From Candidatus Omnitrophota bacterium (lineage in GTDB: Bacteria > Omnitrophota > Gorgyraeia > Zapsychrales > JBDRMG01), in NCBI GenBank assembly GCA_043812495.1, contig JBDRMG010000065.1, forward strand, positions 2,339-66,338: a DNA stretch of 64,000 bases, given 5' to 3'. Positions within the stretch are counted from its first letter, which is position 1. Every line of letters starts with the position of its first letter. The notes under the pieces are model-generated. The model had not been told where the DNA came from and ran no database searches. It was given only the letters and a program-made list of their open reading frames with translations. Both the position numbers and the translations under genes were made by a program. Shown piece after piece: positions 1-30,000 of this stretch.

Positions 1-3000
1 GCGCTAGGGGGTAAAATTCCAGGACACACCTTTAATGTCCTTCCGTTAGATAATGACAGCATCATAGCTATTGATTTCAAAAATCGGCAAATTAAAGTAA
101 TAGGCCCGAATAACCCCGTTGATTTTACTGATGATAGAATTACTTCCGGTGATGTTCTTATAGATACATCTCCTTATGATGATGTGATTTATGCTAGCGC
201 TTGGTACAACCGCGGTAATGCCCTTACTGAATTAGGCCGCTACGCAGAAGCCATTGCCTCCTATGACAGCGCCCTTATCTACAAGCCTGATGATGCCGGT
301 GCCTTGTACAACCGCGGTAATGCCCTTACTGACTTAGGCCGCGACGCAGAGGCCCTTGCCTCCTATGACAGGGCCATTACCTACAAGCCTGATGATGTCG
401 AGGCCTGGAATAACCGCGGCGTTGCCCTTTATTATTTAGGCCGCTACGCAGAGGCCATTGCCTCATATGACAGTGCCGTTACCCACAAGCCTGATGATGC
501 CATGGCCTGGAGTAACCGCGGCATTGCCCTTCATAACTTAGGCCGCTACCCAGAGGCTATTGCCTCATATGACAGTGCCGTTACCCACAAGCCTGATTAT
601 GCCATGGCCTGGAGTAATCGCGGCATTGCCCTTAATTACTTAGGCCGCTACCTAGAGTCCCTTGCCTCCTATGACAGCGCCATTACCTACAAGCCTGATT
701 ATGCCATGGCCTGGACCAATCGCGGCATTGCCCTTCATAACTTAGGCCGCTACCCAGAGGCTATTGCCTCATATGACAGCGCCCTTACCTACGAACCTGA
801 TTATGCCAGTGCCTGGAACAACCGCGATGTTGCTAATGACGCTGCGCTCAGATTGAATAAGGCACAAAATAACAATTTATTTAATATTGACTTCCGGCAG
901 TTATTGAGCTCGGCAGTGGTTGCCGGACTTGCCTTGGTTGCAATAAATAGCGGCTTTCAGCTTATCTCCGGAGCCGGATTTGGTTCAGAATTATTCCTGC
1001 CGGCTACTTTGTTTACCGCAGGCGTGGTATCCAAAAGTAGTCCTGAAGAATTGAAAGAGAAATTATTAGGCTTACTAGCCGAGATTAATGCCTCAGTAGA
1101 GAGCTTAAGGGAGTTAGCTGACAAAGGCCAGGCCAATGATTTAAGTTCGGTTTTAGAAGAGCTTAAGGAAAAGGCAGCCAAGGCAATCAGCGCAATTGTT
1201 AACGAAACAAATGGGAATGATAATCTTGATAGTGTATTAAGGCACGATTTAAGCAATGCTTTGAATTTGGCCGGCTATTTTGATGTCTTCTTAAGGAAAG
1301 AAACAGGCAAGCAGATTGCTTCTATAAAAAGCGCCCTGCCAATGATAGAAGAAGATTTAACAAAGGCTGAAGCTATTATTAGTAATCCAAGGTTATATTT
1401 AGCCAGAAAAACTGTTGTTTCAGAAAATGAGCTTACTAATAAAGCATTGAAGGTTATTAGCCTTACTGCTCTCACCTGGCTGGGGTTAAGCCTGGCCTCA
1501 AGCGTCTTTGCCGGCCAGGGTGGGGCCGCTCTTGAATATAATCCTTGGGTTGTAATTGGTTTGTCAGCCGGGCTTACCGGCTTAGGCCTATTAACAGCTC
1601 TTCCAAAGGTAAGGAATTTTGTGAAAGAACTTTTAAGAAAAATTACGCTATCCACAGTTTTGATAACTGTGTTATCTTCATTAGCAGCTTTTGGCATTTT
1701 ATATGCCATACCAGAAGGAGAGAATATTACAACGCCTCAATTTGAAGTGAAAAACACAGATGAAGCAATCGACAGCCTCTGTGCTTATGCTGTCAGGATG
1801 CATGAGGCAGGCTACGAGGGAGAACTAGGCGGAGTCGTGAAAAGAGAAGAAAACAGCCTTTCAATTTATGTTACGGACAAGGCAGAGCATTCAGTCAGCA
1901 CTCCTTTGCCGGAAGTTGATAATGAATTCATTTGGCACATTCATCCTGAGGCTGATTTAGGTAATATAGAGAATGCCGCAAGGAGCTTACAGGTTTCAAT
2001 AGAAGATTTAGACGGTTTGCTTCTAACCAGAGAGATTGACGGAAAGGCAGTTTCTCATAAGCAGAGCATAGTAATACTTTCTGCCGAAGACAGATATGCA
2101 GCTTCTTTGGTTAATGAGCCTGATAGCCTGGATATGATATTCAGGAATATGTTTTTAGAAGACGCAGAGTCATTCGGAGAGCTATTTACTTCACCCCTCT
2201 TACGTCAGGCGGCAAGGGATGTTAAATGGGTGGGTAATCCATTAGAAGACTTTATTGAAGAACATGCTTGTTCATGGCCATTGGCTGCCAATATAATCGG
2301 CATTAAGGCAAACGTATATTATCAGGAAGAGGGCAAGACAATCGAATATGATTATACGCTTGAGTTTAACAGGAATAATGAATTGCAGGAATTCAGAAAG
2401 GAATTTAACCTAAATCATCAACCGGTTAATCAAGGCAAGGCTCCAGCCAGTGTAATCTTGAACCTGATGTTTCTTGGGTTTGGCCTGGCAGCGGCAAAGG
2501 CAGGCTCGGCTAAAGCTGATGATGGCAAAGGGTTTGAATACATAGGTGAAGCAAGAGTAACGGGCGGAGCACAGTATAGCCCTGAAATATCTATGGCAAA
2601 GATAATGAAGGGCATGAGAATTGACGGGTTTGGTGAGATGCTTTTTATTCTTGTGTTAGGCGAATACAAAGCTACAAAATCATCATTTAAATTTATTAGG
2701 ATGATAACTGCGCAACGAGCTGACGAATTAGACACAGTGCCTGAGGATAGGTTCCATGCTCATATTGATTACAGAAAGAAATTAATAATGCCGAGAGAAT
2801 TATTTAGAGAATCCGGGATAAAATTTCAAGAGCAAGTTGTTTTCGTAAACGCTGGTTTTCCGGAAGGTGAATTACGCATTTATTCGAAAAGAGATTGGGA
2901 TAAATTGGTTGACTTAAAAGTAGTAACCTTAGCCGGTTTAGGCTTGGGAGTATTTTTATTAAACCAATTTGTTCCTTCGCTGACTAATCTTAATACCGGG

Positions 3001-6000: not shown

Positions 6001-9000
6001 AAAACAGAAGACGTGGAGGAAAAAGCCCTTTATGACTCCTTGGCCAGCGGAGTTATCAATTTCGCCATAGCTACACAAGATGAAAGAGGGGCTAATTTTA
6101 CGAGACGGCTGTTTATGCCGGCTTCGGCTTCCCAGCCTTATGATTTTAGAACAGGCTTTAATTCTAGCTTATGGTCTGCAATTGTCAACAATTACAGGCT
6201 TAATCCCAGAGAAAAGCTTTTAGAGCCTATGCAAAGTTTTACCCTTTGGCTTCTTGACCAACAGCAGACAGATACAGATACAGCTTATCAGGCAAGCTTA
6301 GGAGCGTTTAGCCGGGGAGATGTCTTTTATAATCCTGATAATCAATATGACCCTGAAGATGGGTATATTCCGCCCGCGGTCATAGATTCTCTTCATTATA
6401 CTGTTGTGGCTACCTCACGCGCTATGGGCTACATGGAGAATTATTACGGTATCATTCAATATACGGATACAGAGTTAGCCTTAGAAATCCAAGAGGCTAT
6501 CAAGCTGGCTAATAATTGGCTATTGACACAGTATCAGGACTATGGGATGTATGCCTTCTTTAATGTAGGCTGTGACCTCTACGGAAAGAACCTGCCTTTC
6601 GCTGGATTTCCGGATTTATTGTTAGAGTCTCAGGTCCTGCCTCTCTATGTATGGGATTATATAAGCTGGCTGGGAGTTGATTTGACTTCCTACAAGGGGG
6701 GCGTAGATTGGCTTATCGCCATATACGAGAAAGAGATAGAGTTTAACGCTAATAATATTAAAGGGTTTTCAAGAAATACATTTGGCGACCCTTCCCAGGA
6801 GAGCGTCGCTTCGCACAGCACTCTTATGGCAGCAGGGACGCTGGATTTATTAGGCGATAGCGCAGAGGCCTCATTTTACAGCAATGAAGTTAGCAAGTTA
6901 ATTACTGATGAGGGAGGAATAATATTTAGCGCAAGCAATGCCGGCAACCTGCCGTTTCCTTCCGACTATCATTATTCTTATGTCGTATCCGGCATCTGGT
7001 ATGTATATTCTGCCTTTGGCGTAAACGGCTTTAATCCTTTTGAGGTTGAGGATTCAATAATTACTCCTGAACAGCCGTTTATACTTCATCAAAATTATGC
7101 CAATCCGTTTGGAGGGGAAGGCACTACCATTGAGTATGAATTAAAGGAGCCTGTCAAAACAGTAGATATAGAAATCTTCAATATCCTGGGCCAGAAGGTT
7201 ATAGAATTCAGAGACTTGGAAAACGGGAAAGGAATTCACGAGATTAGATGGGATGGCAAGGACGGCAATGGAGAAGGCTCAGCCAGCGGTATTTACTTTT
7301 ACAGGTTAAAGGTTGACGGCCGCATAATAGAGTCAAAGAAGGCAATGTTGATTGGCGCAGCAGAAGATGATAATGCGCCGGTATACGGACAGGAAGAAAC
7401 TTCTCCAACCCTACCTCTTTTAGCTGGATTACTTCTGACTCCTGCGATTGTTACCAGAAGAAGAAAGACAGGCATTTTAAAGACTGCTGTTATGTTAGCC
7501 GGCCTTGGCTATGCCAAAGGCATTGGGTTTGTAAACGCCTTAGCAGAAATTATCCAGGCCAGATTCTTCCATAAACGAAGAGCCGCGCTGCGCAGGCTGG
7601 CTTCCAAGGCCGTCAGCAAAGGCGCTTTCGTGTATAACAAAATAGCTGAAAGGTTAAAGGAATTGCGGTCTCCTCGCTCTGTCGCTGCTGAAACAGAAAC
7701 AGCTCATTCCTCAGGTGAGGCTTTGACTTCATTGGCAGAAATCGAAAGAGCTATTCTTTCGGCTGAGGAAATCATCATTCAAGCTAAGAAACAAATAATA
7801 AAATGGGCGCTTGGCATGTCGATTCCTTTCCTATTTTTGCTTCAGGTATTACGCGCAGGTCTGACAAACGCGGACGCATATTATTTCTTCCCGACGAGAT
7901 ATATTTTAATTTTGGCTTCCCTGGCGGGACTTATCATGACGGCCGTGGGTGTTGCACGGCAAATCAGGAATTATAGAATTTTGCGTAGTCGCGAAAGGAT
8001 TGTCCGGGAATATAAAGGCATTATTGCGGAAAGCAAAAATTTACTTGCATCTCTTGAAAGAAACGGAGCGGGAGAAGGCGCCCAATCCGATGCCGACCAA
8101 ACTCTCCACGCCAACTTCATCACGCCAGAGATTATTGCGGTCATCGGGCTGATCCTTATGATTGCCGGAATTATGTATGCGCTGCGACTGTCAGGGACCT
8201 GTCCCGCTGGTTTTGCCAAAGGCAAAACTACCAGTGGGACAGGTCCCGAAGCCGCTATGAAGATAGCCTCGGGACCTGTCCCTGCTTTTCTGATTGTGAC
8301 GGGGATAACTTTGGCGGGGACGGGGATTTTAGCGAACAACAATCATCGCGACTTGCCGAGGACTTTCAAGAATTCAGCGGCAGGAAGGATGGGAATTTTA
8401 CCGAAATTTCCAAGGGACAACAGATGGCGGTCGCCGGATACGATACAATCAACCCCGCCTTCCCTGGCGGCATGGAGGAATTTATCATCCGAGGGGTCAG
8501 CTTTGACAATGGGATCCCTCCGGAGCGGTTCGACAAAGAACGCCTGGTCTTTGATTGTTTCCGCGATCTTCAGCACAGTGGCTTTTGGGATAATTTTCTC
8601 GAACTTGGGACGGTTGATCACTTCGACGAACTCATCAAAAATTCTGTCCGATAGGACCAGCGTAAATGTTTCCTGGGAGAGTTTATCGAGAATTTTGCCG
8701 CAATGGGAATACGGCTTCAGCAGGCCGGAAACAACAATGTTTGTGTCAACAACGGCCTTGAGCATATTGGTCTTGACGGTAGGCTTTTATTTCATCGTTA
8801 ATTTCTTTTTGAGAAACAAGATGTCTCCTAAGACGCTTGCGAATATCCTTAAAGATACCCTGCCATCTTTCGCGAAAGGTTTCGTTGTTAAGCTTGCGCG
8901 CCAATTTCAGCTTAAATCTCTTAGGCATGCGGTCAACGATTTTCTCGACCTCTTTTTCCGATATATTCATAGAATATTTAATCACGGTTTCTTCTCCTCC

Positions 9001-12000
9001 GATAAATTAAGTATAGTCGCTTTCTCTTGGCCTGTCAATAATTACTCCCCGGTTTCTAACCGCGATTCCCGCGAACTCCAGGCTAATTTCATCATGCCGG
9101 CCATAATGGCCGTCGCGGCGGTCGTATTGATCATGTACGGTATGATGGTAATAGCTGGCTTATTTAAGAATCAAATGCGCGCCTCTTCCATCCAGTGCCA
9201 GGGCCCGCCTAAAGGCGAGGCACGCCCGCCGGCGAAAACGAGAATTTCCCCCGCCCTAGCCATCCTCGCTCTTTCCGCTGTTCCTGCCTTCATCATTCTT
9301 TTCGCCGTCTTCTCCGAACACAGCCTTGCGTTTATGCCGGTCGCGTTGTCTGATATTGCTTTGCCGGGATTGATGGGAGTAATACGAATTACCTCCGCTA
9401 ATAAAAATGAAATCATTGCCGAAAACAATGGCATCACAGATCCCAATCTCATCTATCCGCAAGACACCATCCAGATGAAAGGATTTATTCTTCCGTTAGA
9501 TCTTTTAAGTCATCCTCTTGTCGTGTTATTGCTCATCGTTGCGGTTGCCGTTCTAAGCTTTAACAGAGTGCGCGAGAGACTCCTGACCATCGGACTTGGC
9601 GCTTTACTCCTATTCTCGGTGTATGCGCTCACGCCGTCCTATGACTCCTCTGATAAGACCTCAAGAATCCCGGCAGGATTGATACAGCAAATTCCGGATC
9701 ATTCAGGCATCCCGCAGGCAGGGCAACGCGCATCCGATTCCCCTGTTGTCAACGGAGCTACCGAAACTCCCCAAGAGGCCATTGTGTCTTATGTCATTAA
9801 ATCCGGCGACACCCTCACGGAAATCATCGAACGGGAACTCGGCGTCTCGGCCTATCGCCCGGTTGTCAATGGCCAGATGCCCTATGAAATCATTGCCGAA
9901 AACAATGGCATCACAGATCCCAATCTCATCTATCCGCAAGACACCATCCAGATGAGATCATTCCTTGGAGACATTTTCACGCCCGGGACCCTAGCGATCA
10001 TCGCCTTTGCTCTTATAGTTGCCGGAATTATATGTGTTTATCAACTCTTAAAAAACCGCGCGGCGGTTAAGGACATGCTTGAAACATCCCTGCAGCGCCA
10101 GGGCCCGCCCGCATCCGCCGTTCCAGCGCGAGCCGGGGTTCTCCCAGCTTCATCCAGAGGCGGACGCCGATGGCGACAGCCGAGACGACCGGTCATTTCG
10201 AGCGGATCTAGATGGGAAGTTTTCGCTTTTGCCGCATTGCTCATCGGGTTTATCTTCTTCTTTAAACCTTCGGCTGCCAAGGCTTCGGATTTTGTCGAAG
10301 ATCAAGATGGCAAGATCACCGCTGTTAACGTGGAATCCGGAGACACCTGGGGTCATATCACGCTTGATTATTACAAAACCCAAGGCCAAGGCGTTGGACA
10401 GCTCTGGGGACCGGACGGAAAGGCGTATACGCTTTGGAGTGAGGTTTATGGGCCAGGTTCAGATTATACAGATATGGATCACATAAGAACCGGCGAAACC
10501 ATTGATCTGACAGGACAGAGTCAAGAGGCAGGGGCAGCTAAATCTCCAACAAAATCCAAGAGTATACAGAAATCCGCAAGAGTCAAGAAGACCGAACCAA
10601 ACAAACAAAATCAGTCAAATCCAGCTAAATCACCTGTCAAATCCGCTCAACCAGAACCAGATTCAACGACAAAACCAGTGAAGAATTCTTCGGCCGGAAT
10701 TTCTCCGGATAGCTTGAAAGACAATTCGAAAATCCAATCTCAAGACAGCGCGAAGGCCGTTGATTCGACTCAAAACAAAAATGCCAATCTATCAAAAGAC
10801 AGCACAAAGGACAAATCATCTCAGAATAAAGGGTCCTCAAGCGGCAAGATCGGCGACGGACAATTTGTCTGGAAATTATTCGGCCCTATCGGAGCTGCTC
10901 TTCTCGCGATGATGGTCGCTGGAATCGCCTTTATTCTTCTTCGAGGCAGAAGCAAGGCAACGCCAAAACAAACAAAGAAAGAATCTGCAGCTACGCCTAA
11001 TGCCGGAGGAGAAAAGGCCGAAGACGTTCCTGGAGATACAGAAGAAGGTACGCCAATAGTTGAAGCTGCAGTTGTCGCTGGATCACAAGAAGCTTCCCAA
11101 ACAGTTGAGCCTGCGGACACGCAAGCCGTTGCTGCTGAAGGAACCGAAGTAAAACCCGAAGAGCCAGGCAATGGGTCTTCTGCTGAAGCTGAAGTTGTCG
11201 CTGGACCACAAGAAGATTCCCAAACAGTTGAGCCTTCGGACAATACTCAAGAAGAAAAACCACAAGCCGTTGTTTCTGAAGGAACCGAAGAAAAATCCGA
11301 AGGATCAGACAACGGGTCTTCTGCTGAAGCTGCAGTTGTTGCTGGATCACAAGAAGCTTCCCAAACAGTTGAGCCTGCGGACACGCAAGCCGTTGTTTCT
11401 GAAGGAACCGAAGTAAACTCCGAAGGATCAGACAACGGGTCTTCTGCTGAAGCTGAAGATTTCGTTGAGCAGGTACTGAATCATGACATTAGCGATCCCC
11501 TTAAGGATCAAAAAGGAAAGCAAGATGATGAACCTGGCGATGCCTCCGACACCCAAGGAGAGGAAACTTCTGGAATCGCTTCAGATGAACAAAACGCCGG
11601 AGATTTTCCGGTATCCGTTGAAGTTCGGGACGAAAAGAATACAGAAGCCGGAGTCCAGGGGCCTGGTCAGGAACCGGTTCGGGAACCGGCGTCTAGTGAT
11701 AATCCTGAAACCGGAGAACAGGACTATATTCCTTTGTGGATGATGGATGAGGATCCTCTCGGCGCAGTAGAGGATGGCTTCGAATTCCCAGAAGAAATAT
11801 CTGATTACACGGTCGAAGCACCGGACGCAACCGGAAAAATAGTCACATTCGCCTCCGGCCAAACATACTACATGGCCTATTACGATATGGAAACCGTCCT
11901 CTCGGACATGGCCACGCGGATTACCATAAAAGAGGACGGCAACGTCGTCGTTCGATTCGATGGAATAGGAAAATCTTATTTCTCGAAAGAACTATTTACC

Positions 12001-15000
12001 TGTTTTGAAGATGCCAGGAAAAGCTTGGAGAAAGTGAAATTGTTACAAGAAGTGGAAACGGAAGACAGAACCGGAGAAAAGAAAACATTCCGCCTTGGAC
12101 AAACGGTTTACTATCCGGGCCCGGAAAGAGATAAAATCGTATCCATAACTGTGGAACAGATACGGCAATATCCGGCGTTTATTCCTTGTTTTCACGAATT
12201 TAGGACCCGGACCAGGATCATCTCCCAGGGCGAAGCTTATCCCCCGATCCTGCTTTATACCGACCGCCAGGATGCGCAACAGGAAATCCTGACTTTATCA
12301 GAGGACGACAACGCCTTGGCTTTATTCGGCCATGACCTTGGCGGCATGAATCAAGCGCTGGCTGTTATCGTTGTCCTGGTCCTTGCGGCTTATGCCTATC
12401 GCTTCTTCAAAAACCGCGCGGCGGCGAAGGAAATACTTGAGACATCGGTTCAGCGCCAGGGCCCGCCTAAAGGCGAGGTAAATCCGCCGGCGGGAATAAA
12501 GATCTCCCCCGCCCTAACCGTCCTCACCCTCGCCGCCAGACTCCTCGTTCCCGCCGTTGCCCTTGTTCTTATCGCTAAAGAAATGGTCGAGCTTATATTA
12601 AACGGAACCTTCGGCAATCCGCAGGCCCTGATAGCCATAGTCGGCTTTGCGGGGTATCCTCAAAGATTTCACGTTGACCCAGAACAGGCATTATCAAAAA
12701 GCGAGAAGTTGAGAAAGCGCGTAGACGGTTTAATCGAAGAGAAACTATTGGACAAAGAAACGGCGGAAGCAGAATTTCAAAAACTCATCACAACGCGCAA
12801 TCTTCTCGGAAAGGCCAAGCGGCAGGAAAGAGGACAAGGAAACGAGGAAAAAGTGAACGCGCTGGAAAAAGAAATCTCACGCGTTAATGGATTAATCGCC
12901 CAGGTCAATAAATACAGGGGCCGCAGCAGAACCTATTTGCCGGATTCAAGAAACGAAAATAGCTCACTGCACGCGAATGCCTTATCGCCACTAGAAATTA
13001 CCCTTTTCGCCCTCATCCTCGCCCTTGCCGCGGCTGTATTATATCTGGCCCATCGATTCTTCAAAAACCGTAAAGTGCTTGATGCATCCATCCCGCGCCA
13101 GGGCCCGCCTATCGGCGAGGCACGCCCGCCGGCGAAAGCGAGAATTTCCCCCGCCCTGAAAATCCACACCGTTCTTCCCATCCTTAATTTTTATCAATCC
13201 GCCGCCGTACATATGCTTATAGATTTTGCATATTTATCTTATTGGCTGATTATCAAAGGGTTAATCAATATCGATGTGGTCTTGGGCATTGCCCATCTAA
13301 TCGGCAGAAATGAATATGATATACAGGATACAAGAAGCATGTTGCACGAACTTTGGTCCAAAATAAGAAACATCCGTTTTGTAACCACGAAGACGTATGA
13401 TCTCAGCAGGCTGAGCGAAGAAGGTCGAAGAATAATGGTAGATTTTGCTTTAGCCAACCAAGATACAAAAGTTCTGGATATCCGGTATCAAGCCTTATTA
13501 AAAACCCACCCTGCAGAAAATGATAATAAGACGACGACGCCTCCCCAAGGCGGCGGGTTAGGATTGTCAAAGATTGCCGGCATGTTTGTGAATCACCAAA
13601 TATCCTTAAGGCGGGCCTTTGCATTGGCGAAGAGAGATTACGCGGGCGGACTTAAATACTCCACCAAAGCCAACCTTGTTGCGGAAATCATCAAAACCAT
13701 TATCAAGAAAACAAGTCAAAAAGCCGCCGGCCTCATCCGCGGGCCGACATCCTGCGCTACAGCGCCAACTGGCACTTTAACCTCTAAAATCTATACTATC
13801 ATCCTCACGCCTGAGTCTGTCGCGGCCATCGGGCTGCTCCTTATGATTGCCGGGATTACTTATGGGTATAAATTATTAGGGACAGGTCCCTCTGGTAGTT
13901 TTGCCTTTGGCAAAATTAGCGGGACAGGTCCCGAAGCCGCTATGAAGATAGCCTCGGGACCTGTCCCTGTTCTTCTTTCTCTGGCCGCTATCGCCATCCT
14001 GATTCCCGTCTTCATCATTTTCGCCTCCCCACCCGAACATATTTTTGCGCTTATGCCGGTGATGGCTCTCGGGCAGATTGTTTCAAATGACAGAAAAGAA
14101 AGCGTATGGATCATTCCTCTTAGACCCGGCTGTCCCGTAAAGTTCAACATGAACAAAAAACAATTATTTGTTCAGGCAGGCGGTTTTCTCTTTACTTTTA
14201 TTCAGTATACCATCGAGAGGACCATTCAATATAGCTCCATGCTTCATCGTCCTCAGGAGGGAGGTTGGCAAGTCTGGGTTCCGTTGATCCCCATAGGAGA
14301 GACCATCCATGTGGGCGGTAGAATCCAAGAGGAATATCCCACTAACATGGTAACGCCCGTTTCGGATAAGACTGTCTCAAGTAGACATTTGGCCGTAACG
14401 ATTACGCCAGAGGGGTTGGCGCAATTAACAGACCTTGGGTCTGAAAACGGAACCTTCATCCATGCTAGAGCTGAAGAGGTCTCGGACCTTGTGGATATAT
14501 CGCCGGAGGCGGTGCTTGAAATCTTGAGACCATCAATGCGTCCGGAGTTGCAGCAAATAAGCGTGCTTGTGGAACTTTTCAGAATCAGAAAACTCGATGA
14601 ATATAAGGAGTGGTCTGCCCAGGGCGAAGACTCAGATGAAGACTCCGCGCATGCCTTGGTTGTATTGCCCGGAGAGAGTATGCTCTTGATTCTTGCCATG
14701 ATACCTCTTGTGATTCTGGCCATGATGATTCTGGAAATGATTCCCTCATCCAGACAGCATCATCCTGAGCCTGACACAACACGCCATGACCGCGAATCCG
14801 CCACCTTCGGTTCTTCTGTTGCCGCAAAAATCCAACAAGATATCGAAGCCATGCATGCCCGCAACCAACGCTCACGAGAGCAAGCCCATGACTCGGTGCG
14901 CAGCCTGATCGCACCAGATCCAGCATTGCTTCCGATCCTCATTGCTTTATTCGCTGTTATGACTTTCCTCATGTCACGTGACCTTAAATCCGCTACCTTT

Positions 15001-18000
15001 GGCTCCAAAGAACTTGAAAAAATGCATCAAGCCCGTGAAAAGGTCTTTGACTATGATGAGGAGTCACGAGAGCAAGCCCATAAATCTGTGCGCTCTGGAT
15101 CAGGACAGACCGCCTACGGCTTTGTGACGGGGGTCTCTTTATCACTGGGAGTTTTGGTTTTTGCCATTTTGACACTCATCGTCATTCGCGCCTCCATCAA
15201 GAGGGTAAATGAAGGTAAATTGGGCAAAGGAACAGCGCTTTCTGTTTACCTCCTTCTGGCAGGCCTGACCTTCGTTCTGGGCATCCTAGGGATCCGGCAA
15301 TTCATACCGGATTCGGAAGAAAGAACAGAACGCTATTATAATCTCAAAGTCGGCCAAAAGCCGGAAGAAATTGACCCCACCTTGGTTCATGAGGACCAGG
15401 CGGCTATTCTCACCCAAGGAAGACACGCCGAGACAAGCAATGTTTGGTACAACATGTGCAAGGTCATTGTTGCCATTGACACGACAAACCAAACGGTTGT
15501 GTTTGGTCATCTGACGCCTTGGATTGGCGATAACGGCCTGGAGAAAACGCCGCAGGAATATCAAGCTTTAATCGATAACTTAAAAGATGTTATGGAGTCC
15601 GAAGGTATTATTCAGAAGAATCTTGTCATCTATCTTGTGGCTAATCACAACACGGATATTACTTTGCTTGAGGAAATGCTCAAAGAATCTTTCCCGGGCC
15701 GGATCCGCAAGGTGATTTCGCCTTTTGACAATCAAAGAGAAATTTATGTTGCCGTCTCCAATGAAGAAGAGGGAATAGAAGTAACATCCGTTGGGCAAGA
15801 AGACAATGTTCCCAATAAAGTATTAGTCATAGATCCTCACACCGGACGGATTATTGAAGAAAGGGACGGGGCTTGGTATATGCTTTATCTTTATATAAGC
15901 GCCGGATTGGCAGCCTATTACTTATTTGGCCATGGCGGTCTTTCTGCTATTGAAAGCCGGTCAAGAAGACGGAAAAGACAATCAACAGCTGATAGGGACC
16001 GATTATATCACGGCCTTGTTTTCCCCTGTCTCACAGGCACCATCATCGAGATGGCCGCGGTGGTCCTTCTAGCTGGGCTTGGGGTTTGGGCGGCCCAAAG
16101 AAGAAGGTCTAGTAGGCTGATTGATTCGGAGAATGGAAACAAGGAAACAGAACTTGACGGAGAAGAGTTCGTAGCCGCTCAGTTCTATCGACTCTACGGC
16201 GCTGACAAGATTAAAGATTTTAGCCCGGCATTCACCATTTCTGAGGCGAAACGCTTACTGGAAGCCGGCTTAGATGACATGGTGCAAAATCTTTACAAGC
16301 AGTATGGGGAAATTATACCTCCGGAAATTAATGCTCCTGAATTACGAGAATTGGTCCGCGGAATCCCTGAAGATCAGCTAACCTTTAAGAACGTGGCCCA
16401 AGCCTTTTCTGGTTATTTAAGAAAGAAATATGATCTTTATAGCAGAGGCAAAATGGACCGCGCTGCAATTATGGATCTGGGTGAGCAGGAGAAAAATATT
16501 CTTCGGTATGTCTTTAGATTATTCAGCGACAATATCCAATACGACCATCAGGGCGCAGACGGCCAATGGAAATCAATACTTTCCCATGCCATCGAAGGCA
16601 ATCCGTACATTGAAGGTAGGCCGCGTACCTATATCTGCGAAACAGCATGCGCTTTGGCCATAATGGCCCTGGAAGAAATAGGCTTAGGAGCAACGCCGGA
16701 TAAAAAACCCTCTAAAATCGGCATCCACAAAAACTTTAAAGGAATAGACATGAGCCAGGGCGGCCATGTGGCTGTTTTATGGAAAACCGTTAATGACGCC
16801 GGTATTTTTGATCTGACGCAGGGACTGGTAGATCATGATGGGCGCTCTTGCCTGGCGAACATAGACATCAATCATGAAGTTCTCAAAATCAAGCAAGCTA
16901 ACGGTCAAGAGCGATTCGTTCGCTATGGCAGCAAAAAAGATTTAGAGCCCATTCAAGGTGAGACCTTTAAAGATCTTCTCGAAGACGAAAGAGTTTGGGC
17001 CAAATACCATGATTTGACTAATAGGAACAATGCAATTGATTTTCACGCGTCTGACAAAGGCAGCATTTTGCTGCAGTCACAGAAAATTTTTAAGGAAGCA
17101 GATGCTTTAAGTAATCTTCCGGTCGTTCGTCGAGATCCGATATTAAGTGAAAATCTGAAGAATCTCAAAGCCACTGCTCAGGCTAACATACAAAGTCTCA
17201 ATAGATCTGATCGAATGAGGAATGCGTACGAAGCCCTGAAGCGACACACAGACACTTTAAACCGAATTCATCGAGTATCCAATGGGAACCATGAGCTTGC
17301 TGAAAAATCCTACACAAAACTAGCGCAAGATATAAAAGACACAATCGCTTCGCTTTCAGCCGACTCAAGGTTTATAGGAGCCACCGCAAATGATGTCAAT
17401 TTCAGATTAATAGCAGTCGACGCATACGGAAATAAGCGCGAGCGAAAAGTCGGTGGTCAGGGAATCATTGACGTCCTTGAAGATCTTAAGAAAGATGCCC
17501 AAGAACATGCTTTGATAAGCTGTTATTTCTCTAGATTTAAAAAAGCAAACGCGAGATTCCAACAAGGAGAAGACGTATTTCCAGATCCAAAGGCCGGGAG
17601 TAATTTCCAAGCGGCTTTAAGCCAATATATTTCTCTTGAGAGAGAAATTAAGAAAACTCTGCGGACCCCGGGCATTTCCAATCCAAGCATTATTCAAAAC
17701 CTAGAGAGCCTACAAGATACCATCGCTGCAAATAAAGATGCCGCAGCCGATAACATAAAAACGCTTGGCCAAACTCCACAAATGGAATCATCCCTCGGTC
17801 TCATCCTCCCCGGCGTGACAGGCACCATTATCGATGTACTCGTAGTCGCCCTGCTCCTGGCCGGGCTTGGGGTTTTGGCGGTTCAAAGAAAATGGTTTTC
17901 GAAACTAGGGGATAGGATTAGCAATGAGCGTTTAGCGTTTAGCGTAGAGCGTATAGTTAGAAATACTAAACGCTATACGCTATCTCCTATCTCCTATCTC

Positions 18001-21000
18001 CTATCCGCTATCCGCTATCCGCTATCCGCTGTCTGCTATCTCCTATCCGCTCCACGCTATGCGCTCTACGCTACTCTTCTCATAGCGGCCGTTGTTTTAG
18101 GCGGCTCGACCGCTTTTGGCTTGAGTTTTGCGATCATGCCGTTTTTGGCATCCATACGCTCGGAGGATTCTGATCCGGACCGGGAATCCCAGACGACGCA
18201 CGTCTCGATGATCCTTTCTCAGCAAGATGAGGACTTCGTTCTTGCTATCGGAGAACAATCTTTCAGAATACAAAAGAATTTAATAAAACAGGAATTTGCG
18301 GCTATTACTCAGAACGGAAAACAGATACAAGACGCGAACGTCAGACTCACCATGCACAATCTCCTTGCGTTTAATTATTTCTTCTGGCTGTATCAGCAAA
18401 AACAGAAAATAGCCAAAGGATCCGCTGATTTTATGGGCGATCTTTATGCGCGCCTAAGCATTACGTATGACCAGAAACGCGTTATTGTCCGTTACGCTTA
18501 TGGGGACGCGCCGCTTGAAGACCAGAGCGAGCATGCCTGGAGTTATGGGTTTGAGATTAACCGTGCCACCGGAGGCTATAAAGCCGAGATTCAGGACAAA
18601 GGCCTCGAGGCATATGAGAAAAACATGCTTTTTAACCGGTATGTCGAATATTTCTTAAGCATTTTAGCGACAGTCCACCGCGTTTTGGATCCAGCGACAG
18701 AGAAAGAAATGATGAGGCTTCTAGAAAAGGCATATTCTTCGAATGATTTCACAGGGTTTTATCGCCGCATTCCCGGCGAACCGGAAATCGAAGAAAAGAA
18801 AGGCGATAGCGGTCGACCAAACCTTACTTTCGGCGGTCTCATTCTCCCTGGTCTCACAGGAACCATCATCGAGGTACTCGTAGTCGCCCTGCTTCTGGCC
18901 GGGCTGGGGGTGTTGGCCCAGAAGAGAGGATGGTCCCGACGCTTTCTGAATAAAACAATTAAGGTAGTCGGGATCCCGACTTCAACAATTTCATTTAAGA
19001 GAACGTCGGGATTCCGCAGGCTGACTAATTCAGAGAACAGAAACCAAAGCACAGAAACCAAAGAAAAGAAAACCTCACCCTACTCCTCCGCCAAAAAGAA
19101 ATTCAGCAAAGCCTTCCCACTCATTGTTATTCTCATAGCCGGTGCTTTGGTGGTAATGTTTATGGATATGCGCGCTGATGTTTATGCATCTGATGATGTT
19201 AAATCTTCAGCCTTAACAATGATCCATATTCTCATAGCCACCACAGCCTTTATACTCTTGCCTTCCTTGTTGCGCTTGCTTGGATATGACAAATGGGCTG
19301 CGCGCTTAGAAAAAGTCTCTTTTGTCGGAATATTTGTGGGCCTTGTTGGACTTATGTCTGCTTCAATTTTTGTCCCCGCCCAGGCCCAGGCGCAGACAAA
19401 TCCGTTCAACACATTCTCTCCCGATGAGCCGGATGATGACGGAAATAATGGTCTTTATGGGGATGACGAGACCAGCAGTCTTCCAGCGACATTTATAACA
19501 CAAGATTATTTATTAGATTTGATTCAAAATGCTGAATGGGGAGTTAAAATATTTACAGAAGATCAATGGAATAATAATGAAGATTTAAAGGGTTGTGAAT
19601 ATCATTATGGAGGCGCTGTTGGTGTTCCTGCGACTCAAACAATGTATTATGCCGGTACCATCGCATCCACAGGGCATTTGTCTCATGAGACAACGCATGT
19701 TCTTCAATCATCCTTAACTCAGGAAGAGCTTCTGGAAGCCTATGACGGATTAGCGGGAGTTATCAGAAACCAAGAGGCTAAAGACATTCTAAGTAAATTA
19801 ATGGATGCTTATTTAACGACCTACAATAAACTTCTAATAGAGTGGGTAAACAGCCAAAACCTTCTTACCGATGAAGAAAAGAAGACGATATTGAAATCCA
19901 ATGGAGCTGATGAGACGTTTGCTCTTCTCTTTGGCATGTTTGTGGGAGCTTGCCAGCCAAGCGAATCGAATCTGGCGACCTGCCATCTTGATGAATACGG
20001 AGTGGCCAGACTGACTGAAATTTTATTGGAAAGCGAAGAAGAGAACGAAGCAAGAGAATATCTTGCTCGTTACTATAGAGATTTAGGTTACGATGAGAAT
20101 TTGGTTAATAACTTATTGCAGACAAACGGTACCCAATTAGGGGCGAATAGCTCAATAGAGCCAGAAGCTTCTTTAACTATCTGTGACTGGTTTATGCCAG
20201 GAGTGGTAGTTGGTGCGGAGGCAACTTCTGCCCCTGCCCAGGCGCAGGATATTATGCCAGTCTCTGGAGAAAAAACAGATACTGATTCAGATTCGACTAA
20301 GAACGATAATCGAAATTTTAAAACAAATCTACTTAATACTTTAAGAAGAATTGGCAGTTCGGCTTATGAAAAACCAAAACCTTATCAGGTGGCGCTAAAT
20401 AATCACCACGGGAGCGCAGATCAAAGCTTAAGAACAGAAACGAGTTCATTGAATCCAAGCGATCGCTATTGTGTAATAAAACAAAACAGAGCTCTTTCTA
20501 TTAATAACCAAATGCAAAAACCTCCTCTTCTTATGCCAGATAGTATTGTAACATTCCAGAATCTTGAAGAAGCGAAAGACTATGATATTCCAGAAGGCTG
20601 GCCCTATGCTGTCTTGCAGTTCAAAGAATGGCCTATTTATTACATTAAATTTATTGATAATTTCATACAAGGATTGGCTTTTGACCGGATGGTTTATTAT
20701 GTCGAAGTAGAGCCAGGCGTTCTTTTATTTGATCGTGAACTAAGAGCGAAAGAACAAGATATGAAAACATTTGGCGAGGGAGGACGTGATTTTCACTTAA
20801 ACGATGTAGTCGCATTCTATAATGAAACCAAGAACAAAAATTGCCCATTGAATATCATGGAGTTCAGATTGCTCGCGGAGTTTATAAATGCAGGTTTGAT
20901 CCTTCGAACAGAAAATGGATACCAACCAGCTATGGAAGCGGCTATTATGAGCACTGATTTGTTAGGAGAAGAGCAAGCGCTTAAGCAGGAATTTGATCAT

Positions 21001-24000
21001 ATGGTTTATTTTATCGATGAACAATATAGGCAAGCGGCTGATAGTCTTTATCTGGCGTTTTCTGAAGAAGACCGCCAATTTGCCGTAGACGTTGTGACCG
21101 CACTCTTTATTTATAATGATCAAAATCCAAATCTTATGGCCAGAGAAGTGGCGGGTTTCTTTAGAGAACCATGGGATCTCATCTATAACAATTTAATCCA
21201 CGTTGACACATCTCTTGCCGCGGATTCCTCAAGAATATATCAATTGGGCGAACAGGTAATTTCTCTTGAAGACCAGAGCGAAATATATAGAGATCTTGGC
21301 AGACAACAAAGATTGCTTGGATATAAGAACCTTGTGGCGCAGCTGCCGGAAAAGACAAAGCGTAATTTCCTAAAGGGCGTTAACGAGATGCAGCTCATGA
21401 CGAGAAAGCCATCCCCTTGCTTAGGCCTCATCCTCCCTGGCGTGACGGGGACCTTGATTGAGGTGCTTGCGTTATTGGCTATCGCTGGACTTGGGATTAT
21501 ATGGATTTATCGAAACTGGTTTGCTCTGAAAAATGTTTATAGCCGAATTTCTAATAGAATTCTTAGTGTGGTCCTAGGGCCGTTGGCGCAAGGAAAGGAT
21601 CATCCGTGGTCCCGACGCTCCGACCATAGGTCGGAGGTCGGGACTCCGACTTCCACAATTTCATATGGGGAAACGTCGGAGCTGTCACAAAGAAATCATT
21701 CGTCGACTGGAGACCAGATAACAGTTTACAGAAACCAGAATAGGCCGTTGGTGCCAGTCGTTCCTTCCGTGGCAGGAATTTCGACTGTTACGCCAACGGC
21801 CTCTTCTTTATTTGTTATGCGAAATAGAATAAACGGAATTTACTTAACAGCTTCGAGGTGGGTCAGCCGCTTGCCGAAATCTTCCTTGATGGTTCTAATA
21901 TCCTCTTCCATTTTAGCAAGCTTGCCGTTTATTTTTGTCAGCTCCTCTTTCATGAATGAGGAACGAAGGCTTATCGTTGTGATATCTTCCGCGTTTCTAG
22001 CCACCATTCCCATTGTGGCGTCCAATTTATCCCGTAAAATGCTCTGGCCTTCTGCAATCGCTCTCATGTCCGTATGGATCTTCTCAAGCACGACTGCAAA
22101 TTCCCTGTCTTTGGAGAATTCCTTCAATGGCTTTGTTGTCTTATTGCCTTTGATCTTCATGATGGCGCTTATTTTAATCCAGCACAAAAATATTGTCAAG
22201 AGTATTCTATCGGTAATGAGTCGTGATTCACAAAAAGATCTTTATCGACGATGGACAAAGGGCGTCTCACGTCTCGCGTCTAACGTCTCACATCCTACGT
22301 CTCGCGTCCTTCGTAAAATTTTCAGCGGCTCAGCCCAAACGACCCTCTCATCTCCTTCTTCGCTGAAAGGCTTGCGCGTTCAGCTTCGAAGGACAAGCGT
22401 GGCTTCAAAAACTAATCAACCATTAGAAAAGATTTTCAGCAGCTCAACTGATGCAGCCCCATCTACCGTGCGCCGGCCTTCCTTTGATATTAAGCCTGAG
22501 GAAGCCGGCATCCCGACTTCCACGAATCAAAATCTCGGCAGAAGGCAGAATCGTAATAACCAATCTTCATTTTCCGTGGCTGGTGAGGAAAATTGGGGTC
22601 CTTCTGCCAAGATTTTATCAGGAAAAATCGGGACTGGTGAGAAGGTTGTTCAAGTTGCGCAAAAGGACAGGGTCCGAGGTGCCCCCCTCCGCACTTCGGG
22701 CTCTGTCCGTAGTCCTTTGGCTGCTTCGGTCGTCATGAGCGTGGCAACACCCGCGACGGGCCTCGAAACAAACTCATGGTGGTTTAGTCCGATCTTCGAC
22801 GGGATCCCATTGACGCCTTATATCATTATCGTCAGTATTCTTCTTTTATTGTTTCTTACCTCTCCAGCTTGGCTATTATGGCCGATAAAATCGGCACGAT
22901 CTAAAATTCCGGATCATGTTGAATGGAAACGATTAAGCCGCAAAGATAAACGAATCGGCGTTGAAGACCTTGAGCGCTTCTTGAATCATCCTGACGGTGT
23001 AGTAATAGATATTAGGACCGACATGTCAGGGAAACAAATGGCGGAAATGCTCAATGAAAGATTTTCCGCGGTCCACACTCCCTACCGAAGAGGTTTTGCC
23101 GCACTTTACGACCGTATCATTCGGACGATTTTGAAACAGGTTTTGCCACAGCAGCCTCTCTTACCAACATCCTCCCCCCAAGATGAAATAACCGCGATTT
23201 ACAATATAGTTTCCAAAATTGCCTCCCCTCTTTCTGAAGAGGAAAAGAGAGAAATTGCCTTTAGGGTTTTGAAAGAAGCTAAAGCGGATATCAAAAGACA
23301 GGTTGAATCACCCGCAAAGTCAGACATCTTTTCTAAACTCAAGGCCATGATGTTTATCATGGCCGGTATCGTAGCTTTCGGGTCATCCAGCCTCTTCGGG
23401 GCCCAACAAGGACCCTTCCCCTTGGAAGGTTCCGCGATCCCCCATAGTTTCGCCTCTGGCGAAACTGTCATGGGGAATCCCGACTTCCTTAATATTGATT
23501 TAGGAAACGTCGGGACAACCGCGGCAGACACAGTTGCGCAAGCTGCAGCAGGTCTATCGGACATCACAACAATCGGATTGATTATTTTGGCCGTTCTTGC
23601 TGTTGGTGTTATGGGAGTAGTGATTTCCGTGAGAATGCCAATCAAATCCCATGTTGCCGAATCAAAGGCATGGAAGTTTATTCGCACCCACTACAAAAGC
23701 ATTCTTGGGATGGCGGCGGTTGTGACCATCGGGATTTTGGCCTGGCAATTCAAGCCATGGGTAGAGCTATTGGCTGCTTTTGGCGCTTCCAATTGGATGA
23801 TCAAAGCCTTCAACTATGTGGTGGCGGCTAATGTGGCCATGTTCTTAGTTCTTACTTTTGAGAAATGGAAATCCGAATACCAAAGAGTTAATCCTTTCAC
23901 CTTGACAAGAGAAGAGATCATAACCGAGCTTATGGAAAGATATAAGGCAAAAGACACGTCACGGCCGTGTCCCGCGGGCACGGAAGGAATGATCGCGGAT

Positions 24001-27000: not shown

Positions 27001-30000
27001 ACCATCCATGAGATTGATGAGCGCAAATTCGGCTATCCTGTTTTTGGTCCTGAAACGCGCCAGGCCCTGGAAAAAGATTTGGAAGACGTAGTAAATCGCG
27101 AGGAACAACTCTCGTTCAATCGCTTGGAGCGCCATGGAACAGAAGATCCGGATCAGTTAAAGAAACTTGACGACGAACAAGAGCTGCTGACAAAGGCAAT
27201 CGCGGAATATGATCAAAAGATATATAACGCCATAGTACAGGCCCAGGGCGAAGACATTGACACGCAAGAATTAACCGCCGCATTTGACCAGCAAGAAAGC
27301 GCGCAAACCGATTCCCAAACCGATTCCCTGGACAGCTTTGTCCTTTTTGACCCGGATAAACCTCTTAAGATCCGCAAGGATGAAGAGGGCGACGGTCATT
27401 ATCGCGCCGGCCGCGAAAGAGAAGAAACAGGAAAAGAGTGGGAACATAAAGGGATTGACCTTGTTGTGGAAACCAATATGTTTATTTATGTTCCAAAGGA
27501 ATTTGACGGCGCGAAAGTCACAAGAGCTGATAAAGATCAATTTGAGAGTACGGATCATTACGGCAATGTCATTGACATTACCAAGGTGATCAATGGGGAC
27601 ACATACACATTACGTATAGCTCATGTGGGTACCGTATGGCCTGATCTCGGAGACATTGTTAAAACCGGACAGGTCTTGGCGCTCACAGATGTGATCACAG
27701 GATGGGCTCATCAGTCCATGCTTCCGGGTTCCAAAATGCTCGAACATATTCATGTTGAGATCTTGAAAAATGGTAAAAATGTTGATCCAGAGGAGCATAT
27801 GACAGGCATTGAGGCTTCAGACGAAGACTCGCCCGATAAGAAGGAATATTTAGAAAAGCGTTCAAAAGAAACGAATCCGGCCACGGCCGTTCCGCAGTTT
27901 ACGCCTGTTGTCCCTGAAGCAATGCAGGCCTCTGTTGTTTATGGACCGGAAGGCGACTCCACGCGCGTCTATCAAGATGTCGCTCAAGAGCTTTATGAAG
28001 AAGTCGATACCGGCCGCGAAGGCCAGGTCGGATTCGGCGCTGTCGGCGCTAAGAGCGTTTTGCCCACGGGTTATTTCACGAGTAAAAATCTCAGATTCAT
28101 ATTGAGCGGAAGCAAAACAGAAAAAGCCATCCACGGAACGCTCTATTGGCAGAATTCCTGGATGAATTCCGCCGCAAGAGGACTCTATAGCGAAGATATC
28201 GCCAGCCTTGGCATTAACAGCAAGGTCCAAACAGGCCGGTGGGCCCTTCTCTTTGACGGCACCTGGATCAAGAGCTTGGTCCCCAAAGAGGATGAAGACG
28301 GGGTTGAAATAAGATACCATGACGACACCTTCTGGCAGACTTATAATCTTGGCGCTGAATATACGGATAACTACCTTCACGTGGGAACAAATGTTTTCGT
28401 TAATCCTCAGGCCGAGGGTGAAGACGAGGAAGTCCTTGGTGACGTGAGCGTCGAAGCGAAGCTGCCCTACGGTATCGGTGAAGTGAGCGGTAATATCTAT
28501 GGTCTGGGCGATGATCCGGAAAGCAGAACATCCAGTGGTTTCATTTCCGGTGCCATTCAAAAGGAAAGATTCAACTTCAATTGGGATGTTGTCAAGCCCA
28601 CAAACTCAGAGAAATTTAATTATAACGCTCAAGCGAAATTCCCGCTCGTAAGAGATAAAGATAAAAACCGCGATGTGACCTCGATCAGCGTCGCGGGCTC
28701 GCGCGTCTATAACTCGCCTTATAATACGGACGGGTCCGCCGCTTATTTTATGGACGCTCAATTCGCGTTCAATCCCACCTGGGAATCCCGCTTAAGCCTG
28801 CGCGCCGATAAACTATTCACCAATCAAACAAGATATGTTTCTGACGTCTTTGTCGGTGATTGGTCTTTCAAGCCGCATTTTTATGGTGATTATAATGATC
28901 AAGGACAATATCACAGCCGGTTTGAATTGGCTCCTCCGCTTGGCCAAAAGAGCAGCCTGGCGTTCTATATCAACGGCCAAAAAGAAGAAAGATTTACCCG
29001 TAGAGGATTTAGTTTTTCCTACAACGATCGCGTGCGCTTTGGTGTTTCCGAAGGCCAATCCGGGGCCTTCTATCCGACGGGCAGCGTGGATTTTGGACGC
29101 TTTAGCATCACAGGACAAGGGATGCGCTATCAAGGAAGAACAGAAGTCGATGTGATCGCGACGGTTGAAGACGTCAAATTCCCTATCATTGGAGTTGTGG
29201 GCGACATCAACGGGGGTGCGCTTGTCGATGAAACAGATAAACCTTATTTTCACGTGGGCTTTAACTTTGATGCGAGAAGCCTTTATGGCAGAGGCGGAAA
29301 TCATAGCACGCCAGATCAGGATTACAGTGACTCGCGTATGTCCAGCCTGAACTCTGTTCAAAGCGTATCGAGCGCGAGCCGCGAGCCAATGCCAATAAAA
29401 AGAGTGTTTGAGCTGATGGTTCAGAACGCTCCATCTCCAGATAAATTGCAGGCCGGCATCTCCCTCTCATCGTCAGACACGCCTGCGACAAACGCGCCAG
29501 AGACTGGCTTACAAGAAAATGTTCTGACCATTAAAAATAATCCAGGCATTAAGAAGACGGGCGGCTCTTCCGCGTCAAATGTGACAGAGGCTGACCTCAG
29601 AGAATACAATCTGGCTATTGAGAAGATTCCGGCCCTTGGAGAGATGACCGCTGACAATCCCAAGGCGCGCGACATGCTCTTGAACGCCATGGTCCTTCAG
29701 GTCGGCCCCGGAAAAATCTATAAAGATGTTCAAGCCTGGCAGGCAAATCTCGCGGGATTGGCTGGCTTGAGCGAGCCGCAGCTTGTAACGGAGCTGCAAA
29801 TACAGTCTAAAGAAGATTTCAATACCGCCATCAAAGGGCTATTGCGCAAATACAATCTTTCCTTGGCAGACATTGATCCCATTCTCAAGGCTGTCTTAGA
29901 CCTTCTGGGCGCGGTGGCCGTCGAAATCCCTAATACCGATCCGGTCGAATACACCTATCCATCTCTCCCTGCCGATCAATTGTCAGCGGGCCATAAGGCC

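Follow-up and report, generated by a model that had tools for sequence, protein, structure and literature searches.

Element A in a giant reading frame

We analysed a stretch of 64,000 nucleotides from a Candidatus Omnitrophota bacterium (assembly GCA_043812495.1, contig JBDRMG010000065.1, positions 2,339 to 66,338 of the forward strand), called here the window, in which a composite palindrome that we name element A occurs twice within a single open reading frame (ORF). The two copies are closely similar as DNA, more so than the transmembrane (TM) helix encoded just before each of them, and one of their spacers stands in opposite orientations. Copy 1 lies close behind a predicted toxin-antitoxin (TA) operon of the opposite strand, which the giant ORF crosses without a stop codon.

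The giant ORF outscores the other frames in codon usage in 99.4% of sliding windows. Its product carries Pfam matches to TPR, PMT_2-like, FlgD_ig, LysM, FHA and M23 peptidase domains, together with about 80 hydrophobic segments of the TM type. The published giant proteins of Omnitrophota, which reach 147,155 residues, combine many TM helices, TPR and cell-wall-degrading domains (10.1101/2023.11.21.568195; 10.64898/2026.06.07.730766). As the domain make-up found here matches theirs, the assignment is consistent, and the window is probably part of an Omnitrophota giant membrane-protein gene. The sole relative among 1.84 billion representative proteins is MFH1359812.1 (P0004 below), a partial protein of 7,503 residues that spans the entire 22.6-kb contig of a Candidatus Omnitrophota metagenome-assembled genome (MAG).

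Both copies lie in modules of the family "L(H/Q)ANF..P - TM1 - loop - TM2", whose members start at 8083 (m1), 9052 (m3), 9952 (e1), 12298 (e2), 12952 (e3) and 13768 (m2). The features of this part of the window are the following:

1-64000, plus strand: giant ORF, frame 0, open at both window ends, 0 stops in 21,333 codons
8113-8190, plus strand: TM1 helix of m1, ITPEIIAVIGLILMIAGIMYAL, 57/78 identical to TM1 of m2
8194-8282, unstranded: element A copy 1, with P1 8194-8205 (centre CT), X 8206-8235, P2 8236-8247 (centre AG), Y 8248-8270 and P3 8271-8282 (centre CT)
8283-8291, plus strand: pyrimidine-rich tail after copy 1, TGCTTTTCT against TGTTCTTCT at copy 2 (7/9), where the homology between the two loci ends
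8343-8765, minus strand: predicted PIN-domain toxin gene, 140 aa, ATG at 8765, stop TGA at 8345-8343
8746-8985, minus strand: putative VapB-like antitoxin gene, 79 aa, GTG at 8985, overlapping the PIN start by 20 nt
8994-9038, minus strand: predicted TA promoter (TTGACA 9038-9033, 17 nt, TATACT 9015-9010, 11/12) and Shine-Dalgarno sequence (SD; GGAGGAG 9000-8994, 8 nt before the GTG)
9052-9375, plus strand: m3, 59% identical to P0004, with an ordinary loop FKNQMRASSIQCQGPPKGEARPPAKTRISPA where m1 and m2 have element A
within 9952-13200, plus strand: paralogs with an ordinary loop, e1 (9952-10200), e2 (12298-12600) and e3 (12952-13200)
13798-13875, plus strand: TM1 helix of m2, LTPESVAAIGLLLMIAGITYGY
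13879-13967, unstranded: element A copy 2, with P1 13879-13890 (centre AG), X 13891-13920 (inverted relative to copy 1), P2 13921-13932 (centre AG), Y 13933-13955 and P3 13956-13967 (centre CT)
13969-14070, plus strand: TM2 of m2, VLLSLAAIAILIPVFIIFASPPEHIFALMPVMAL, homologous to TM2 of m3 and of P0004

Anatomy and predicted folds

Element A has the same layout in both copies, P1 (12 nt)-X (30 nt)-P2 (12 nt)-Y (23 nt)-P3 (12 nt), 89 nt in all. P is the self-complementary 12-mer GGGACNNGTCCC (GGGAC-NN-GTCCC), spacer X holds the hairpin TTTTGCC-NNN-GGCAAAA and spacer Y the hairpin GCTAT-GAAG-ATAGC; the element as a whole begins AGGGAC and ends GTCCCTG. In copy 1, P1 and P3 are identical 12-mers 77 nt apart. 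The span from P1 to P3 is 2 mod 3, and the unit read in frame is 90 nt, i.e. 30 codons (8194-8283 and 13879-13968), stop-free with X in either orientation in the frame used. The 12-mer occurs 6 times in the window, always within the two copies of element A, against 0.01 expected, and 0/100 shuffles reach 6. No further copy of the element was found in the 64-kb window. After both copies the plus-strand tail is rich in U and C (UGCUUUUCU and UGUUCUUCU).

The element folds strongly: predicted RNA folds of both strands of both copies range from -51 to -60 kcal/mol (z -6.0 to -7.7), the DNA folds have z about -7 to -7.7, and 0/200 shuffles fold as well. The arms of P1-X-P2 (18 nt) and those of P2-Y-P3 (17 nt) are each 94% complementary. 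The most favourable predicted fold is a three-way junction in copy 1, whose P1 exactly complements P2 (18-nt arms), and a series of tandem hairpins in copy 2, whose P1 complements P3 instead (13-nt arms). The X stem of copy 2 gains a G-U pair usable only in plus-strand RNA. The small hairpins are thus predicted to be preserved between the copies and the higher-order pairing is not, so that a preliminary description of this DNA, made from the letters alone, which had supposed the secondary structure to be preserved, holds for the former and fails for the latter. An Rfam search with element A gave nothing above the gathering scores, only generic hairpin noise.

Conservation and inversion between the two copies

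The identity between the m1 and m2 loci, followed from one segment to the next, is:

60 nt upstream: 15/60
TM1: 57/78 (12 codons identical, 3 synonymous and 11 nonsynonymous differences)
P1: 10/12
X, inverted: 27/30
P2-Y-P3: 47/47
next 9 nt: 7/9
next 60 nt: 21/60

The homology is sharply bounded, from 8113 to 8291, with both flanks at random level. Element A as a whole is 84/89 identical between the copies, the inversion of X being allowed for and P1 scored directly, and it is more conserved than the adjoining TM1 (Fisher p = 1.9e-4); at the divergence of TM1, a run of 47 identical bases has a probability of about 4e-7. The longest identical stretch, 49 nt, is 8236-8284 = 13921-13969, which bears out the two multi-hairpin copies with an identical 3' half that had been reported at the outset.

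Spacer X is inverted as a 30-nt block: 27/30 positions agree, without gaps, when X of copy 1 is reverse-complemented before the comparison with X of copy 2, and 10/30 when the two are compared directly. The 2-nt centre of P1 is flipped as well. The sub-hairpins previously described as reverse complements of each other are indeed flipped, but not independently, since one inversion of X plus the flip of the P1 centre accounts for them; the apparent one-codon shifts beside the inner hairpin likewise arise because the whole block is inverted.

The encoded peptide changes where X is inverted (GTCPAGFAKGKTTS against GTGPSGSFAFGKIS), as had been proposed, and its last 16 residues, at the C-terminal side, are identical. 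Over these 16 codons the synonymous divergence is zero, while TM1 differs at 14/26 codons. An exhaustive protein search found the peptide of element A in no protein. Conservation so far above that of the adjoining helix suggests that element A was kept or copied as nucleic acid rather than as a protein motif. The preliminary description had arrived at the same idea of a palindrome conserved at the nucleic-acid level, and had named as the opposite case an element confined to one protein position with conserved amino acids: here the position is conserved and the amino acids are not. Besides the contrast between 47/47 and 57/78, the idea is strengthened by the unrelated loop of the paralogs and of P0004, and by a second palindromic family, element B, read in two registers (see below).

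Replacement of the TM1-TM2 loop

A TM helix stands directly upstream of each copy (TPEIIAVIGLILMIAGIMY and TPESVAAIGLLLMIAGITY), in agreement with the first observation of the locus. In m3 and e1-e3 the corresponding loop reads FKNR..QRQGPPKGEARPPAKxRISPA. P0004 contains two modules, with a TM1 of the m1/m2 type (LTPEAVAAIGLVLTLAGIM), a TM2 near that of m3, and an ordinary loop (FFKNRRNSTQRGMRIATPSQGPPVKARISPA), and its alignment with m2 is gapless through the loop. Since P0004 aligns to m2 without gaps, the 30 codons of element A appear to replace an ordinary loop of equal length and not to be a simple insertion. The earlier proposal that the element was inserted so as to keep the frame must therefore be revised, as no residues were added. 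We also considered an origin of element A in situ from the ordinary loop, and discarded it: the local alignment scores against the loops of m3 and e1-e3 are not above those of shuffles.

An antisense vapBC-like operon beside copy 1

The minus strand from 9038 to 8343 carries in order a promoter, an SD, an antitoxin gene and an overlapping full PIN toxin gene, which we read as a complete putative vapBC-like TA operon nested antisense in the giant ORF. The toxin matches PF13470 PIN_3 over the whole profile (1-115/115, E 1.2e-21, 78 bits for a cut-off of 27) and TIGR00305, a model of PIN-family TA toxins (61 bits, cut-off 29); its codon score favours the minus strand; it has acidic residues at D7, E45, D93/94 and D112, and 394 full-length plasmid relatives annotated as PIN-family TA toxins. 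A sequence-level search found no relative in the PDB. The antitoxin is assigned by a weak match to NF047401 VapB15 (E 5.8e-6, profile 2-66/66), under the curated cut-off; its codon score is 9.2 in the minus frame against -1.0 in the giant frame. With its promoter, SD, small putative antitoxin and overlapping PIN toxin with likely catalytic acidic residues, the cassette resembles type II VapBC systems. It differs from the usual ones by the weakness of the antitoxin match and by its location antisense within a larger ORF, whose frame stays free of stops across the cassette.

The giant frame remains open through the PIN gene in 6.5% of its synonymous recodings and through the VapB-like gene in 11%; given the TA protein sequences, the chance that it stays open across the whole operon, non-coding parts included, is about 9e-4. 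Immediately outside the -35 box, from nt 9046 on, the giant protein is again homologous to P0004. At the other end, copy 1 lies 61 nt past the PIN stop codon, a proximity with p about 0.009, and the homology to copy 2 ends 9 nt past P3, at 8291.

At only two places in the window does another frame beat frame 0, and the stronger one starts right after copy 1: plus frame 2 prevails at 8292-8650, with a change point at 8297 (support 8290-8309), a return at 8630-8650 and a gain in log-likelihood of +31, against -8 for the next best block elsewhere. A frameshifting insertion, a -1 frameshift, a ribosomal bypass and a hop from P1 to P3 were all considered and rejected, because six-frame scoring shows this signal to be the mirror image of the minus-strand PIN gene, codon-aligned with plus frame 2. 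No slippery heptamer was seen by eye near copy 1, and the plus frame 2 and frame 0 peptides of the block have no Pfam match. Neither of the papers on giant Omnitrophota genes (10.1101/2023.11.21.568195; 10.64898/2026.06.07.730766) mentions nested or antisense genes.

The 12-mer in other genomes

A loose scan of genome contigs for two 12-mers 20-34 nt apart, a pattern that is unspecific, returned at least 120 loci in diverse phyla; among the matches listed, the centre is AG/CT in 71 of about 150. The statements that follow also concern the matches listed:

L001, L019, L059, L080, L087, L112 and L115: Clostridium MAG
L075: Coprococcus MAG
L016: Omnitrophota MAG
L021, L053, L061 and L070: Fredinandcohnia
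others

Several unrelated phyla have multi-copy palindromic repeats whose stem is this exact 12-mer (GGGACAGGTCCC/GGGACCTGTCCC). Most of these loci are intergenic, as they lie in short open stretches, and the hairpin of the Omnitrophota MAG is one of them. At some Clostridium and Coprococcus loci the 12-mer builds P-spacer-P-spacer-P arrays between genes, with spacer hairpins in either orientation. By their architecture these arrays appear to be repeats like the repetitive extragenic palindromic (REP) sequences and the bacterial interspersed mosaic elements (BIME). Outside the 12-mer, no likeness to element A was seen.

The core pattern of element A gave 12 matches in metagenome contigs, attributable to chance, and 0 in viral contigs; word-indexed protein searches for other copies came back empty; no PIN or VapB gene lies beside the same-stem hairpins at 120 other loci; and a literature search for the 12-mer yielded unrelated primers only.

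Origin and role of element A

We favour, with a probability of about 0.55, the reading that element A is a REP/BIME-like composite palindrome, tolerated as a linker by the giant protein and reshaped by template switching, that served as a landing site for the TA cassette and now provides its 3' hairpin. As the adjoining coding sequence diverged, recent non-reciprocal copying from one paralogous site to the other, or homogenisation of their inverted-repeat arms, would have kept the copies near-identical. The inversion of X and the flip of the P1 centre may be signatures of replication template switching between these arms, a process that inverts spacers and homogenises arms in coding DNA (PMC8604942; PMC8794818). 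The cases described in these studies share with element A perfect arms of more than 9 bp, a reverse-complemented spacer, a location in coding DNA, several adjacent residues changed at once, and stems that stay perfect. They differ by coding-region spacers of 2-5 nt and by a comparison made between strains, whereas the spacer of element A measures 18-30 nt, is itself a hairpin, and is compared between paralogous copies.

The giant gene could tolerate element A as a flexible linker of 30 residues rich in Gly, Pro, Ala, Ser and Thr, since neither orientation brings a stop into the frame used and since the linker has the length of the ordinary loop. Module m1 might once have consisted, behind its TM1, of element A and TM2, the TA cassette joining later behind the palindrome, 9 nt beyond P3. 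In m2 the 9-nt tail belongs to the native TM2 sequence, which suggests that element A predates the cassette at m1. The palindrome was most likely a fragile or hairpin landing site for the cassette; at present, as a strong stem-loop behind the PIN gene, it might end or stabilise the TA transcript and limit antisense transcription into the giant gene.

Several observations weigh against this reading. Only two copies of element A are known, in equivalent places of paralogous modules within a single gene, and the element is equal in length to the loop that it replaces, unlike a simple mobile insertion. The identity extends to unpaired bases, which homogenisation of the arms alone does not explain. 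Neither an antisense gene nor a PIN or VapB remnant was found beside copy 2. The cassette junction is placed after P3 by the 7/9 tail, which is short and rich in pyrimidines. Finally, the minus-strand tail of the copy 1 hairpin (UGACAGUCGC) has no U-tract, so that the hairpin is not a canonical intrinsic terminator of the TA transcript, and a terminator scan reports no site there.

Other readings account for parts of the same evidence. Element A might be the integral end of a mobile TA cassette, a folded-DNA recombination site in the manner of the integron attC, copy 2 being a solo site or a scar. TA cassettes are common integron cargo, and attC, which works as folded single-stranded DNA, closes a gene cassette at its 3' end with an imperfect palindrome about as long as element A. 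Copy 1 indeed follows the PIN stop closely on the 3' side, as a cassette-terminal site would, its multi-hairpin palindrome fits such a site, and the near-identity of the copies is what recombination cores would show. However, by inspection element A has neither the R'' nor the R' core (GTTRRRY/RYYYAAC), no attI and no integrase or other recombinase gene is in view in the window, and copy 2 stands outside any cassette array and has no toxin or antitoxin remnant near it. Moreover, the hairpins with the same stem at 120 other loci are not accompanied by PIN or VapB genes, and the tail common to both copies, native TM2 coding in m2, suggests an element older than the cassette; we thus regard this reading as unlikely. 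A signal in the plus-strand mRNA, pausing the ribosome as TM1 emerges or acting as a translation-dependent attenuator when ribosomes lag, is equally doubtful. Both copies come directly after TM1, the plus-strand fold is strong (-53 to -59 kcal/mol), a pyrimidine-rich tail is conserved after each, and the additional G-U pair in the X stem of copy 2 works in plus-strand RNA only; but the element accompanies only 2 of about 80 TM segments, the paralogs and P0004 do without it, its higher-order fold differs between the copies, and the minus strand folds equally well. Structure alone does not explain the near-identity of unpaired bases, and two copies give no covariation evidence.

That the palindromy is incidental, element A being an ordinary Gly/Pro-rich loop of recently duplicated or gene-converted paralogs, is somewhat less probable still. 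Such a loop would have the same position, frame and length in both copies, an identical C-terminal part of 16 residues, and no further occurrence than the two found, all of which is observed. It leaves unexplained the excess of the 12-mer (6 against 0.01) and the fold z of -6 to -7.7; the inversion of X alters the peptide, 16 codons show no synonymous divergence where TM1 differs at 14 of its 26, and no protein with this peptide exists in the exhaustive search. A programmed intragenic inverton, in which a recombinase flips X between the P sites and the loop peptide alternates between AGFAKGKTTS and SGSFAFGKIS, seems very improbable. A symmetric site with an asymmetric 2-nt centre resembles the crossover sites of serine recombinases, and P may be compared to it; copy 1 also has perfect inverted arms of 12-18 nt around X, both orientations of X are seen, albeit at two different loci, and the inversion keeps the frame and remains stop-free. 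Yet the segment (18-30 nt) is far below the known invertible segments, a single inversion leaves the flip of the P1 centre unexplained, no invertase gene is present in the window, and copy 2 cannot flip X because its P1 and P2 are direct repeats. The likenesses to attC and to serine-recombinase sites are both unsupported by the sequence of element A. Least probable of all is an artefact of assembly or sequencing: an exact repeat of 49 nt with strong hairpins can mislead assemblers, but the flanks of the two loci differ, the 64-kb frame passes through both without interruption, the TA promoter, SD and stops follow in the expected order, and a real antisense gene fully accounts for the apparent break of frame at copy 1.

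Among known repeats, REP, BIME and REPIN (REP doublets that form hairpins) share with element A the short self-complementary units arranged as inverted doublets, the spacers forming hairpins in ssDNA or RNA and the mosaic arrays in either orientation (PMC3116915). REP and BIME are typically found directly downstream of a gene, the position that copy 1 has with respect to the PIN gene, and the identical 12-mer builds the intergenic arrays of other bacteria mentioned above. Unlike them, element A is known in two copies, has no sequence relation to the REP families described, and lies inside an ORF translated on the other strand: both copies are within the giant ORF, copy 1 being extragenic only with respect to the minus-strand TA operon. 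The Rickettsia palindromic elements (RPE), to which element A had been likened at first, are palindromic repeats of about 100 nt translated in frame that leave the host protein unbroken (PMC10969869). RPEs occur scattered over many unrelated genes, to whose products they add a conserved peptide. The copies of element A share one position in paralogous modules of a single gene, stand in for a loop as long as themselves and encode a peptide that is conserved only in part, and the likeness does not fit as first stated. As it is neither extragenic nor inserted in a dispersed manner, we do not file element A as a REP, a REPIN or an RPE.

A second nested gene and element B

Another antisense gene and another palindromic family are present in the giant ORF:

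ATG 22160 to TAA 21840, minus strand: putative nested gene 2, coiled-coil-like, 106 aa, no family match, promoter TTGACA-17-TAAAAT at 22199-22171
22466-22643 and 57022-57199: element B, second palindromic family, 178 nt, 113/178 identical without gaps

Nested gene 2 is probably leaderless, and its codon score is 11.7 in the minus frame against -1.5 in the giant frame. A hairpin with 15-nt arms (21737-21807) follows its stop codon at 33 nt, and element B copy 1 lies upstream of its promoter together with heptamer repeats. Both nested antisense genes thus appear to end in a hairpin, with the same layout. Element B has two hairpins whose stems are kept through changes on both arms, and the giant frame reads its two copies in different registers, from which it follows, more strongly than from element A, that palindromes in this ORF are conserved as DNA and not as protein.

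Matches to a sigma-70-type promoter of at least 11/12 number 4 in the window, all on the minus strand, for 1.2 expected over both strands. Two of them (11/12, at 42450 and 6188) were examined as starts of further nested genes and dismissed, as no convincing ORF lies downstream.

In this direction, the palindromes could be the junctions or landing sites of a process that loads promoter-bearing antisense genes into the giant ORF without breaking its frame, an extension that we consider doubtful. If it were true, the vapBC-like operon beside element A would be one load and the coiled-coil-like gene, beside element B and the long hairpin, another; giant genes would then be integration platforms, growing partly by foreign DNA translated as filler, with hairpins that insulate the two directions of transcription.

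Bacterial genes as long as 30,000 to 147,000 codons came to light only recently, and they raise the question of how such genes originate, grow and stay intact. The window indicates that a giant ORF can hold REP-like palindromes and a functional-looking TA operon on the opposite strand and still be open. As the chance of its remaining open through this operon is roughly 1 in 1000, selection on the integrity of the frame and on tolerance of the "filler" peptide is implied. The window also offers concrete loci at which to consider the insulation of antisense transcription in a very long gene, palindromes as hotspots of cassette capture, and hairpin-driven template switching that rewrites several residues at once.

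Other repeats in the window

Weak partial relatives of element B occur near 18946-18988 and 21633-21679. Close to nested gene 2, tandem 7-nt repeats of GAGACGY-type units on the minus strand occupy 22260-22330. Another array of 7-nt units, CTATCYC/CTATCCG, with a 14-nt family spacing, extends over 17966-18070 and adjoins an inverted repeat at 17927-17981. A minus frame slightly beats the giant frame in codon score at 10057-10300, 18811-19066, 29245-29470 and 63766-64000; the region at 18.8-19.1 kb coincides with a palindrome (18957-18990) and with one of the partial matches to element B.

Within the module region, a LysM-like coding stretch of 79 nt is repeated at 9407-9485 and 9884-9962, 477 nt apart and with 96% DNA identity, which again suggests that this part of the gene has recently undergone local duplication or gene conversion. 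The start of the window (89-898) is a TPR array of 102-nt units (34 residues), 63-86% identical in DNA to the reference copy, and an inverted repeat in the ORF at 2897-2975 has 23-nt arms, 78% complementary and 33 nt apart.

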